A DNA stretch of 64,000 bases from Elusimicrobiota bacterium (lineage in GTDB: Bacteria; Elusimicrobiota; Elusimicrobia; UBA1565; JACRDR01), in NCBI GenBank assembly GCA_041694815.1, contig JBGFSC010000018.1, positions 10,598 through 74,597 of the forward strand, read 5' to 3'. Below, in pieces: positions 26,359-55,177 of this stretch (positions within the stretch are counted from its first letter, which is position 1; each line of letters opens with the position of its first letter). Below the pieces are notes generated by a model that did no database searches, had not been told where the DNA came from, and worked only from the letters and a program-made list of their open reading frames with translations. The translations under genes were made by a program, and so were the position numbers.

Positions 26359-26394
26359 GGTGCCAGGCATCCACTTTCTATACTTTGTTGACTT
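26359..26394. repeat. Solo arm of palindromic element family B
   Basis: GGTGCCAGGCATCCACTTTCTATACTTT differs by one base from the arm at 52235-52262. Confidence 0.85.
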
Positions 26395-51388: not shown

Positions 51389-54300
51389 ATGAAAAGATTG
51401 TTAACGGAACCCAAGAGGATGGCCGATCTCGGCCTGCTTTACTGCGCTTTCGTCTGGGGCTCGACCTTCATCGTGGTCAAGCAAGCGCTGGTCGGGGTGC
51501 ATCCTATAAGCCTCGTGGCGCATCGATTCCTGATCTCGGCCCTACTGCTAGTCCCATGGGTCGGTCCCCGGCTCAGGACGGGGGCGACTTTGCGCGAGGG
51601 AGCCATCCTGTCGATCCCGTTGGCGCTGCTCTATTGGACCCAAACGGCCGGGCTCCGCTGGACCAGCGCGTCGAACTCCGGCTTCATTACGGGCCTTTTC
51701 GTCGTCTTCGTCCCGGTGCTGCTTTGGCTGTTCCGCGGACAGCCACCCAGCCGAGCCCAGGGCGCCGCCGTACTGTTGGCGGCGGCGGGATTATGGCTGC
51801 TCAGCGGGGGCCCGGGCCGTTTCAATCGCGGCGACGCCCTGACGCTCGTCTCCGCGATATGCTACGCGGCGCACCTGCTTTTGACCGATCGTTTCGTGAG
51901 GCGGGATTCGGATCCTATCCTTTTGGCCTTCCATCAATTCTGGATCACCGCGGCCTTGTCCTTGCTTTTGTCGGCGCTAATGGATTATCCTTTGGCCGTA
52001 GCGCCTAGTTCGGCGGCGGCCGTCGCGTTCTTGGCCGCGATCCCGACCCTTTCCGCCTTTTATATCCAGATGATCGCCCAACGCCACGCAGACCCGACGA
52101 GGACCGCGTTGATCTTCACGCTGGAGCCCGTGTTCGCGGCCCTATTCGCCCTGGGGTGGGGCGGGGAATCGCTGGCTCTTTCGGCGGCGGCCGGCGGGGC
52201 GCTGATCCTAGCGGCAATGGTGACCGCCGAAATCGGTGCCAGGCATCCACTTTCTACACTTTCTCAACTTTCCTCTTGGACTAAGTCAATAAAGTGTAGA
52301 AAGTGGATGCCTGGCACCGGTATGGTGGCGTTGGCGTTTCTGTGCTTACCGGCCGGCCGCGCGGCGGAGCTCGTGCTGGCCCCCCAGCCGGGCGATCCGA
52401 TGCAAGCGAGCGTGCATCGCCTGGAGAACGGCTTAACCGTCTACCTGAGCCCGTTCCATCAGCAGCCCCGCGTGTTCGCCGCGATTGCCGTCCGCGCGGG
52501 CGCCAAGCACGATCCCGAGGACAGCACCGGCATGGCGCATTACCTCGAGCACATGCTGTTTAAGGGCTCGCGACGCATGGGGACCTTGGACTACGAGAAG
52601 GAGTCTGCTCACCTGCGCCGAATCGAGGAGCTCTATGAGAAGCTCTTCACGGCCCGGGATCCGGAAGAGCGTCGGGCGATCTACCGAAGCATCGACGAGG
52701 AGAATATCCGGGCCTCCGAGTACGCCGTGCCTAACGAGGTCGACAAGGTCTACCACGCGTTGGGCTTTTCGGGCGTCAACGCGTACACCACGGACGAGGG
52801 GACGGTCTACGTTTGCAATTTCCCCGCCAATCGCGCCGAGGCGTGGGCCATGGTGGAGTCCGACCGGTTCCGTCATCCGGTATTCCGCCTTTTCCAGAGC
52901 GAGATCGAAGCCGTCTACGAGGAAAAGAACAGGTCCCTCGACAATGCCGAGGTCGTGCTCCACGATACGGTCGAGAAGATGCTGCACAAAGGGCACCCGT
53001 ACGGGGAGCGCACCGTGCTCGGTAGCATCGAGCATCTCAAAAACCCCTCGCTCGCCAAAATGCTCGCTTATTACGACGCCCATTACCGGCCATCGAATAT
53101 GGCCATCATCCTGGCGGGCGATTTCGAGCGTGGGCCGATGCTCGAGCTCATTGAGAAATACTTCGGCGCCTGGCAGTCCCGTCCCGCTCCCCCGCAGCCG
53201 AGCTGGAGCCCCGACCGCCCGAAAGGAGAGGAGCGCGCCGAGATCCACTTTGAGGCGGAGGAGCGCGTCGTCATCGCCTGGCCCGCCGTCGCCAACAGCG
53301 ATCCCGACCGCGACGCCCTTTCGGTAATGGACATGATCGTCGACAATGCCGAAGCCGGCCTCATCAACCTTAAGCTCAACCAGGCCCAGCGGGTCAAGGC
53401 CGCGGGCTCCTATCCGGTTTTCTACAACGATGCCGGGTCCTGGCGCGTTTGGGCGACGCCAAAGAAGGGACAGAGCGTGGAGGAGGCCGAGCGGCTGCTG
53501 CTGGAGGTAGTCGAATCGCTCAAGCGCGGGGAATTCAGCGAGCAGGACGTGCGCGCGGTGATCACGGACTTCGAGGTCAACGAAAAAAAGCGCCTGGAGT
53601 CCAATGCAGCACGGGGAGGGGCGCTGGTGGAGTCGTTCGTCGATCTGGAGCCGTGGACCCGCGCCGCCTTTAGGCTCGAGCGCATCCGCAAAGTGACGCG
53701 GGAGGACGTGCTCCGAGTCGCACGACGCATTCTCGGTCCCGGGCGCGTCACGGTGTACCGCTGCGATGGCAAGCCCGTCTTGCCCTCCATCGAAAAACCC
53801 AAATTCACCCAGCTTAAAATAGACCCTTCCCGGCAGTCCGAATTCGCCAAGGCCGTGCTGGCTCTGCCAACCAAGCCTTTGGAGCCTCGCTTTATAAAGG
53901 AAGGGGTGGACTACCGCGTGGTCGACGAACCCTGGGGCAGGCTCTACGCCGCGCCGAACTCGGTCAACGACCTTTTTTCCCTTAGCTTCGTCTTCGATCG
54001 CGGCAGGCGGAAGGAACGCACCCTTTGCGAGGCCGTGAGTTTGCTCGATCTGTCGGGAGGCGGCGGGTTGTCGGCCGAGGAGTACAAGAAGGCCTTGTAC
54101 GCCCTGGGCACGACGGTATCCTTCTCCTGCTCCGAGGATCAAGTGATTGTCGCGGTCAGCGGGCTCGAGGAGAACTTCGAGCGTTCCATGGAGCTTCTGC
54201 GCAGCCGGTTTCAATCGCCCAAGACTTCCTCCGACACGCTCAAGAAGATGGTCGAGATCGCCATCGGCGCCCACCGGGACCGCAAGAAGGATCCGGGCCA

Positions 54301-55177
54301 TATCGAATACGCACTGGCCGAATACGCGCGCCGCGGTTCGGAGAGCGTGGTTCTCGGCGAGCTGCGCGACGATGAATTGGGACGCCTGGAGGAGGCGCCG
54401 CTGCAAGGACTGACTCGTTCGTTGTTTGGCTTCAAGCGCCGCGCCTTGTACGCGGGGACGCGCCGTATGGAGCGGTTACTGCCGTGGCTCGATTGGGGCG
54501 GCCCCTACCGCCCGCTGCCGGCGCCCGAGCCCAAACGCTACCGGCGCCGGGACAAGCCCGCGGTCTATTTCGTGCACCGCGACATGCTGCAGTCGAAGGT
54601 CGGCTTTTTCATCCCGGACGAGAAATATCGCGAGGAGAACAACGCGCATTACCGCTTCTTTAATACGGTGATGGGGGGCATGAGCGGCGTTATATTCCAG
54701 GAGGTCCGGGAAGCCCGCTCCTTGGCGTATTCCTCCTCGGGGGGATACTCTCCAGGCGGGCGCAAGGGGGATGAGAACGCGCTTTGGGGCAGCCTTGGCT
54801 GCCAGGCGGACAAGACGATGGAGGCGGCCGAATTGCTCATGCGGCTAATGCGCGCTCCCCCGGTATCCGAGGAGCGCTTCCGCGAGGCCAAGAAAGCGAT
54901 CGAGGAGCAGTACCGTTCCGATGTTCTGACCTTTCGTTCGATCCCCGGCGCCTTGCTTTCTTGGGAGGAGAAGGGGCTTCGCGGCGATCCCCGGCCGAAG
55001 CGCTTTAAGCGCGTGCTCCGCTACCGGCTGGAGGACCTGGAGGGTTTCATGCGCCGCTTCAAGGAGCGCTCGGGGACGCTGCACGTGCTCGGCAACCGCC
55101 AGCGCGTGGACCTTGGGGCCTTGGGCAGGCTGGGGGCCTTCGAGGAGCTCAAGTTAGAGGACATTTTCCCGTACTGA
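51389..55177 (+). CDS. EamA/DMT transporter and M16 zinc peptidase in one reading frame
   Basis: First ~282 aa are EamA (WGSTF, LEPVFA); from ~aa 307 a signal-like segment, LENGL and HYLEH; linker is encoded by a palindromic element. Confidence 0.8.
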   Translation: MKRLLTEPKRMADLGLLYCAFVWGSTFIVVKQALVGVHPISLVAHRFLISALLLVPWVGPRLRTGATLREGAILSIPLALLYWTQTAGLRWTSASNSGFITGLFVVFVPVLLWLFRGQPPSRAQGAAVLLAAAGLWLLSGGPGRFNRGDALTLVSAICYAAHLLLTDRFVRRDSDPILLAFHQFWITAALSLLLSALMDYPLAVAPSSAAAVAFLAAIPTLSAFYIQMIAQRHADPTRTALIFTLEPVFAALFALGWGGESLALSAAAGGALILAAMVTAEIGARHPLSTLSQLSSWTKSIKCRKWMPGTGMVALAFLCLPAGRAAELVLAPQPGDPMQASVHRLENGLTVYLSPFHQQPRVFAAIAVRAGAKHDPEDSTGMAHYLEHMLFKGSRRMGTLDYEKESAHLRRIEELYEKLFTARDPEERRAIYRSIDEENIRASEYAVPNEVDKVYHALGFSGVNAYTTDEGTVYVCNFPANRAEAWAMVESDRFRHPVFRLFQSEIEAVYEEKNRSLDNAEVVLHDTVEKMLHKGHPYGERTVLGSIEHLKNPSLAKMLAYYDAHYRPSNMAIILAGDFERGPMLELIEKYFGAWQSRPAPPQPSWSPDRPKGEERAEIHFEAEERVVIAWPAVANSDPDRDALSVMDMIVDNAEAGLINLKLNQAQRVKAAGSYPVFYNDAGSWRVWATPKKGQSVEEAERLLLEVVESLKRGEFSEQDVRAVITDFEVNEKKRLESNAARGGALVESFVDLEPWTRAAFRLERIRKVTREDVLRVARRILGPGRVTVYRCDGKPVLPSIEKPKFTQLKIDPSRQSEFAKAVLALPTKPLEPRFIKEGVDYRVVDEPWGRLYAAPNSVNDLFSLSFVFDRGRRKERTLCEAVSLLDLSGGGGLSAEEYKKALYALGTTVSFSCSEDQVIVAVSGLEENFERSMELLRSRFQSPKTSSDTLKKMVEIAIGAHRDRKKDPGHIEYALAEYARRGSESVVLGELRDDELGRLEEAPLQGLTRSLFGFKRRALYAGTRRMERLLPWLDWGGPYRPLPAPEPKRYRRRDKPAVYFVHRDMLQSKVGFFIPDEKYREENNAHYRFFNTVMGGMSGVIFQEVREARSLAYSSSGGYSPGGRKGDENALWGSLGCQADKTMEAAELLMRLMRAPPVSEERFREAKKAIEEQYRSDVLTFRSIPGALLSWEEKGLRGDPRPKRFKRVLRYRLEDLEGFMRRFKERSGTLHVLGNRQRVDLGALGRLGAFEELKLEDIFPY
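52234..52319. repeat. Palindromic element family B (29-bp perfect inverted repeat, 28-bp spacer)
   Basis: CGGTGCCAGGCATCCACTTTCTACACTTT 52234-52262 and its exact reverse complement 52291-52319. Confidence 0.92.

Follow-up and report, generated by a model that had tools for sequence, protein, structure and literature searches.

We analyzed a 64,000-nt stretch of DNA (hereafter the window, C18:10598-74597) from a metagenome-assembled Elusimicrobiota genome of 2.77 Mb in 54 contigs (G000). Within the window, a short palindromic repeat lies inside a single open reading frame that encodes an EamA transporter upstream of the repeat and an M16 peptidase downstream of it. The features are listed below in window coordinates. 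Repeat names refer to repetitive extragenic palindromes (REP), to their hairpin doublets (REPIN), to terminal inverted repeats (TIR) and to the REP-associated tyrosine transposase (RAYT).

51389-55177, plus strand: open reading frame of 1262 codons and a stop; the public gene call begins at Met11 and gives 1252 amino acids (aa).
51389-52234, plus strand: EamA/DMT transporter part (aa 1-282), with ten predicted transmembrane helices and without the C-terminal tail of its homologues.
52235-52318, no strand assigned: doublet of REPIN/TIR type, 84 bp or 28 codons (aa 283-310), classified by comparison of its arms, its family and the RAYT-unit ends.
52235-52261, plus strand: left arm, made of a GGTGCCAGGCAT head and then 9-nt NNACTTTCT units.
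52292-52318, minus strand: right arm, reverse-complementary to the left one, holding an ATG at 52307-52309.
52322-52363, plus strand: ATG and signal-peptide-like segment MVALAFLCLPAGRA, aligning with the signal peptides of stand-alone orthologues, with a likely signal-peptidase site before AELV.
52364-55177, plus strand: mature M16 (insulinase-type) peptidase part (Pfam PF00675, PF05193), with its HYLEH zinc motif at 52538-52552.
26359-26385, plus strand: solo arm of the same repeat family, with one mismatch, 9 nt past a TAG stop codon.

The frame is open for 301 codons upstream of the element and for 952 codons downstream. In the upstream part, Pfam detects EamA (PF00892) in two stretches (6.8e-32), and the two EamA repeats together with the ten helices of an AlphaFold model agree with membership of this family. 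In the downstream part, Peptidase_M16 (PF00675, 4.2e-16) and M16_C (PF05193, 1.3e-30) are found. The HxxEH zinc motif of the M16 family is present as HYLEH at aa 384-388, the M16_C domain follows, and the M16 part is intact, with an alignment over residues 1-951 and zero stops.

A preliminary description of the window had reported a palindrome with 29-bp perfect arms at this junction, and a reverse-complement test places such arms at 52234-52262 and 52291-52319. By the conserved ends of its family, the element measures 84 bp (52235-52318), or 86 bp when the flanking C/G pair is counted; this outer pair is not conserved among the copies. At 92% complementarity the arms extend to 37 nt, with 12 nt between them. 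As RNA, a 131-nt segment spanning the element folds to -75.4 kcal/mol (z -10.4), a stability that none of 200 shuffles reached. The element had also been called AT-richer, which its GC content bears out (0.46, vs. 0.60-0.74 in the flanks and 0.63 in the genome). As claimed, the frame passes through the element without a stop, reading GARHPLSTLSQLSSWTKSIKCRKWMPGT, and an ATG at 52307 is supplied by the element, inside the right arm; a second ATG is found at 52322. The proposed position at the EamA/peptidase boundary stands as well, with the element starting directly after Ile282 and GGT ATG and the signal-peptide-like segment coming next. The junction peptide expected from a fused EamA–M16 chain is HPLSTLSQLSSWTK.

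The repeat is dispersed in this genome. The solo arm at 26359, which had been taken as a sign of dispersal, is real, and the arm has 62 matches at ≤4 mismatches genome-wide. Within the window, the 27-nt arm has 3 matches vs. 0.00 expected in 100 shuffles. When the 21-nt arm core was searched, 62 sites were found in G000 and 0-2 in each of 30 related genomes, with 0 for the reversed control. The family in G000 consists of 24 short inverted doublets (66-147 bp) and ∼11 solo arms. Each arm is built from the 12-nt head GGTGCCAGGCAT, exact in 53 of the 62 arms, and from 9-nt NNACTTTCT units after it, whose number varies. REP units are typically short imperfect palindromes that start with GTAG or CGTC; here the tetranucleotide CTAC (GTAG on the other strand) is present at arm positions 20-23 in 29 of the 62, and the arm is periodic and forms no long palindrome by itself. 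By inspection, the flanks of the 24 units show no direct target duplication. A classical miniature inverted-repeat transposable element (MITE) derived from an insertion sequence (IS) was rejected on this ground.

The number of 9-nt NNACTTTCT units varies, one copy has a run of five, and at some sites a doublet directly adjoins an extra solo arm (C22:14621-14739, C9:10992-11101 and C36:259-365). The solo arm at C19:20634 abuts a gene end, its first G completing a TAG stop (CTG TA-G, the hyphen marking the border). Two solo arms on C44 (C44:60728 and C44:61398) are 670 bp apart, each after ∼130 nt of near-identical sequence, and this pair resembles a duplicated gene start with its neighbouring repeat.

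A transposase partner is present in the same genome. A 1010-bp unit (C15:53761-54770) has the same arms around a gene for a 303-aa protein; here the arms are 38 nt long, with 92% complementarity and 936 nt between them. The protein passes NCBIfam NF047646 (REP-associated tyrosine transposase) with 85.8 bits at a cut-off of 80, and matches Pfam Y1_Tnp (PF01797, 3e-12). Its only PDB match is 4er8, the E. coli TnpA-REP, to which the HUH and tyrosine regions align (NHIHLL with EHMHCI, and RYIHLNPV with DYIYINPV). The gene is single-copy in G000, with one tblastn match at E ≤ 0.01 across the 54 contigs, and 30 of the 31 genomes of the order have homologues. At 5 of the 6 loci inspected, G000's included, the RAYT gene is bracketed by its own inverted arms (36-64 nt long, 856-936 nt apart).

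Compared with the ends of this unit, the window copy is identical over its first 37 and last 36 nt, which is the best score among the 24 doublets (the runner-up has 65 identities). Because no other doublet comes as near to the ends of the transposase unit, the window copy looks young. By sequence, the window element is a REPIN/TIR-type doublet and a non-autonomous partner of the single RAYT of G000. The case for mobilization of the repeats by this RAYT is circumstantial and comes from the identical ends and from the lineage-specific burst (62 arm matches vs. 0-2 in relatives).

In related genomes, the RAYT homologues at L103, L104, L105 and L106 carry their own, different inverted arms, and some of the arm heads look related (GGTGCC..., GGTACCAGG..., GGGGTCAGG...). 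In several genomes RAYT paralogues are numerous, with up to 12 matches in G015 vs. one in G000.

The element belongs to an already known kind of RAYT-associated repeat. In the REPIN-RAYT systems or REPtrons, as Bertels and Rainey (2011; PMC3116915) outline them, inverted copies of a repeat flank a RAYT-type Y1 transposase gene that is present once, and the repeat is scattered as hairpin doublets and decayed singlets that are almost all extragenic, as in G000. The G000 system differs in that its arm is no classical 20-40-nt REP palindrome but a 12-nt head with 9-nt NNACTTTCT units, and in that the host phylum is Elusimicrobiota. A literature search for RAYT together with Elusimicrobia returned nothing relevant. 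Tyrosine transposase genes with long TIRs and moderately abundant families of TIR dimers have been described, and REP dimers inside genes of several phyla encode 20-30 amino acids (Di Nocera, De Gregorio and Rocco, 2013; PMC3733652). The G000 element encodes 28 aa in frame, and its arm fits the TIR class of that paper, as characterized in its main account, better than REP. In that account the inserts lie within single genes or at gene ends, and none is seen bridging two formerly separate genes. A literature search for REP-driven joining of adjacent genes likewise found nothing relevant, the supplementary list of intragenic REPs of PMC3733652 lying outside the comparison.

Two other kinds of coding repeat invite comparison. 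Rickettsia palindromic elements (RPE) are reported to lie within open reading frames at high frequency, in 19 reading frames, with near half of the copies of some families so placed (PMC2229807, PMC10969869); among coding repeats they stand at the extreme. The preliminary description had compared the window element with them. For the window copy the comparison holds, since in both cases a palindromic repeat is read in frame as an extra peptide in an otherwise conserved protein. It fails for the family, which is RAYT-associated and has only 2 of 24 doublets and 0 singlets read through by Pfam-supported genes; the comparison is with RPE as these sources describe them. The label of an RPE-like 'coding repeat' was rejected for the family, Pfam-supported genes reading through only those two doublets. 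MITE open frames fused in frame to chromosomal genes are known in enterobacteria and Neisseria (Delihas 2007/2008; PMC2229807), and sometimes form signal peptides (PMC2229807, PMC10969869). As these sources present them, such elements are IS-like, with TA or other target duplication, whereas the G000 repeat shows none and has a Y1 transposase as its partner. A repeat that replaces the stop/start junction of two conserved genes is less commonly documented.

The copies of the family were then compared for their position in genes. Read-through was checked in six frames for each copy and the 19 longest frames were translated; 18 frames (16 of these 19, and two across the C19 solo arm) were scanned with Pfam. 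Extragenic status was judged from stop codons, flank composition and Pfam. Pfam support was obtained in 5 of the 18 read-through frames. For three of them (response regulator, TPP enzyme, cNMP-binding protein), the domain and a plausible start both come after the element, so that it is only nominally inside the gene. The other 13 frames have no Pfam match, and those translated look Arg/Pro/Gly-rich, as wrong frames do. Pfam-supported genes traverse the window copy and a copy in the 3′ tail of a GT2 gene on C40, and the window copy is the sole copy with real coding sequence on both sides. One of its six frames is open, which is the frame in use, and both other plus-strand frames meet a stop in the loop.

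Among the 24 doublets, the length is divisible by three in 7, and 50 of the 144 frames are stop-free, vs. 30.1 ± 4.7 in 500 shuffles (maximum 46). Such an excess of stop-free frames in the family makes read-through likelier when a copy lands in coding sequence. The GT2 glycosyltransferase gene (C40:7889-8719, L114) is a frame of 277 codons with its Pfam domain at aa 29-194. It runs through a whole 66-bp variant element (C40:8643-8708) and stops 4 codons beyond, so that the last ∼26 residues of the protein are written by the repeat.

The preliminary description had proposed that orthologous loci be compared for separate genes. An M16 orthologue is present in 30 of 31 related genomes searched. 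Among 15 fetched loci, EamA lies directly upstream of M16 in three: that of G000 and those of the two genomes of the sister genus (L002 and L003), whose protein identity to G000 is only 55-60%. Across 99 loci, some with short upstream flanks, an M16 match was found in 93, an EamA match in 5 and both in 3. At L002 and L003, EamA and M16 are separate genes in different frames, with no element. There the TGA that ends EamA shares bases with the M16 start codon (ATGA), and a GAGGT ribosome-binding site lies 5-6 nt upstream of the M16 ATG, within the Glu-Val codons of the EamA tail.

Homologues were sought for each part (among 5.8 billion proteins for the M16 part), and the best 120 matches per part were examined (top identity 73% for the M16 part and 63% for EamA). 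Among these, EamA and M16 occur together only in the window's own product, the single member of its cluster, on a single contig. The 119 other best M16 homologues (735-1229 aa) have no EamA domain, and the best 120 EamA homologues all stand alone (280-344 aa). Of the 80 metagenome loci kept (best identity 70%), none covers both the EamA and the M16 parts. Among the sequences compared, the EamA–M16 fusion is specific to G000, and it coincides with the repeat.

The comparison also revealed a missing segment. The best 120 EamA homologues continue for 5-33 residues past the position of Ile282, for exactly 16 in 94 of them and for at least 8 in 116, and 89 of the 120 carry the motif [KRQN]E[VI] in this tail. 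The G000 EamA has none of the tail; the repeat begins directly after Ile282. In EamA orthologues the 16-residue C-terminal tail ends in ...KEVLP[VAI]. The conservation of the tail at the protein level may partly reflect a nucleotide signal, the Glu-Val codons spelling GAGGT in the sister-genus genomes. On the peptidase side, the segment MVALAFLCLPAGRA followed by AELV resembles the MKLLLAVLLSAAPVRA and MTSILLAVLVAAGLRA of the nearest orthologues, each followed by AE. The G000 segment is two residues shorter than theirs and has no charged N-terminus.

How, then, did the two genes become one? The preliminary description inferred a selfish repeat that created the fusion or replaced the stop/start junction. 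The position exactly at the junction and the in-frame reading stand, but the sufficiency of insertion does not. In silico, exact removal of the 84 bp leaves GAA ATC GGT ATG GTG, in one frame with no stop. Because EamA and M16 remain in frame after this removal, a plain insertion is insufficient. From the last shared EamA codon to the M16 start there are 20 bases in L003, 47 for a 16-residue tail and 87 in G000; wherever the two genes overlap, this distance has the form 3n+2. So, besides the gain of 84 bp, 3n+2 bases were lost, 44 of them if the tail had 16 codons (about 44-47). The lost bases, judged from the relatives, took with them the EamA tail, the ribosome-binding site and the stop codon.

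These data suggest the following course. In the ancestor, the EamA end and the M16 start would have overlapped as ATGA, with the ribosome-binding site within the EamA tail codons. The repeat would then have arrived together with the deletion, or shortly ahead of a deletion beside it. We infer that insertion and deletion formed one linked event. A repeat-linked deletion is preferred because the repeat fills the gap exactly and no element-free fusion was found among the compared sequences. The reverse order, in which the fusion is older than the repeat, with a 3n+2 deletion joining EamA to M16 and the repeat later hitting the one permissive place, the domain junction, is in our view unlikely. 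It would account for the open fused frame left by exact excision, and it suits a family that has no target duplication and whose other copies give no sign of DNA removal upon insertion. Yet it demands a chance hit on a junction one or two codons long, exactly at the site of the DNA loss, and it meets no element-free fusion among the 119 M16 and 120 EamA best homologues or the 80 metagenome loci.

A further rival is an error of assembly or consensus. Were there an indel in the true loop, EamA would end at the TAA inside the element and the genes would be separate. The sequence comes from a 54-contig genome of an uncultured organism, the protein cluster has its one member on one contig, and both other plus-strand frames do stop in the loop. 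Against this, gene order equals that of the sister genus, and therefore there is no mis-join. Pairing of the arms is perfect, and the element matches the RAYT-unit ends at 73 of its 84 nt, which leaves only 11 nt unchecked. Whichever bases the loop holds, the conserved tail is absent, as are the binding site and the stop. We consider an artefact improbable, even more so than a fusion older than the repeat.

Residues 1-345 were modelled with AlphaFold from an alignment of 53 EamA homologues. Ten helices are predicted between residues 2 and 284, and block values of the predicted local distance difference test (pLDDT) are 84-98 for residues 11-280. The Foldseek top match of the model is 5i20, other transporters of the DMT fold also scoring high. 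K/R-rich segments lie at the EamA N-terminus and in every second loop, according to a hydropathy script used for loop charges only. Lys/Arg-rich loops face the cytoplasm (the positive-inside rule). Because of this rule and the alternating K/R-rich segments, both transporter ends are predicted to be cytoplasmic. The 28-residue linker coded by the repeat has five K/R, one H and no acidic residue, and pLDDT falls along it from 67 to <50. In the orthologues the signal peptide ends in xRA-AE (the hyphen marking the cut), and this conserved site is kept in G000.

In the model that follows from these features, ribosomes translating EamA would read through the hairpin into the peptidase. The basic linker should stay in the cytoplasm. 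The signal peptide that belongs to the peptidase would next pass outward through the membrane, as in the stand-alone peptidase, and so expose the conserved xRA-AE site. Signal peptidase could cut before AELV, releasing a normal periplasmic enzyme, so that a normal transporter bearing a new tail and the usual periplasmic peptidase could both come from the fused chain. It is plausible that the cell tolerates the fusion. Read-through is now probably the main route to the peptidase, which would account for the frame in use being the one seen among the six possible. In the other two frames, EamA would end at the TAA in the loop and the peptidase would be left with neither coupling nor a binding site; this loss of coupling may be why the read-through configuration is observed.

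The peptidase could also be made from its own start, at ATG 52322 (or 52307), with the read-through chain as a minor product. An ATG does stand at the native start position, followed by a normal signal peptide, the repeat adds a further ATG, and many G000 genes seem to have no Shine-Dalgarno (SD) site. The start region, in turn, is the right hairpin arm or lies 3 nt beyond it, in the fold of -75.4 kcal/mol. No SD-like 4-mer is present at -18 to -4 of 52307, 52322, 52325 or 52331, no promoter-like site is present, and no stop is left for termination-reinitiation coupling. Initiation at 52322 or 52307 without upstream translation could occur but is not favored, and we regard two proteins by separate starts as an unlikely outcome. 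A scan found neither a promoter-like nor a terminator-like site at the element; a repeat-borne promoter and an intrinsic terminator were dropped as candidates.

The peptidase might instead stay permanently tethered to the transporter as an adaptive architecture, one that could, for instance, link the cleavage of peptides to their export or import. In the sister genus EamA likewise precedes M16, with translational coupling, and this conserved order hints at a functional link; given the topology, the peptidase would come to lie on the outer side of the transporter. Since the fusion is found in one genome only, the element looks young, and the kept xRA-AE signal-peptidase site predicts release, we hold such a tether to be very improbable.

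Taken together, the data favor, at a probability of roughly 0.55, a reading in which the repeat took the place of the EamA stop/M16 start junction, read-through fuses the genes, and the chain is processed by signal peptidase. In a stronger form, the repeat itself turned a coupled two-gene operon into one gene by destroying the stop, the binding site and the start overlap, so that only the frame in which the hairpin is read through survived, the peptidase is made solely as the tail of the transporter and freed by signal peptidase, and the fusion is kept by selection; this is a possibility that we put forward only tentatively.

Several points weigh against the favored reading. (i) The exact-removal result shows that simple insertion alone is not the origin of the fusion, and an earlier fusion through deletion accounts for that result equally well. 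(ii) The relatives are only 55-60% identical, at which distance the order of insertion and deletion is unreadable. (iii) An error of 1-2 bases in the 30-nt loop would end EamA at the TAA inside the element. (iv) The linker and the signal peptide have pLDDT <70 and no alignment depth. (v) The missing ribosome-binding site is a weak argument vs. a separate start, because only 253 of 916 long open reading frames of G000 have an SD-like 4-mer before the first ATG, vs. 149 of 916 background windows. (vi) Arms this perfect point to a recent event, which may not yet have stood the test of selection.

For annotation, the locus carries a warning: the 1252-aa 'EamA-M16' public protein rests on one contig, and repeat-bearing junctions in metagenome-assembled genomes merit a check at the level of reads. 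For the repeat family, REP/REPIN-type repeats are usually treated as intergenic passengers, and the window copy lies in an operon that has no intergenic space. There the repeat replaces a stop/start overlap, and a single frame now spans two conserved genes. Should reads bear out the sequence, and should the chain be made and processed as proposed, the locus would offer a small natural case in which selfish DNA drove the fusion of genes. In its stronger form, if true, a selfish REPIN would have forced, and selection kept, the fusion of a polytopic membrane protein with a secreted enzyme. The cytoplasmic transporter end and the cleavable signal peptide would then make the join topologically harmless, which would show why some fusions are tolerated.

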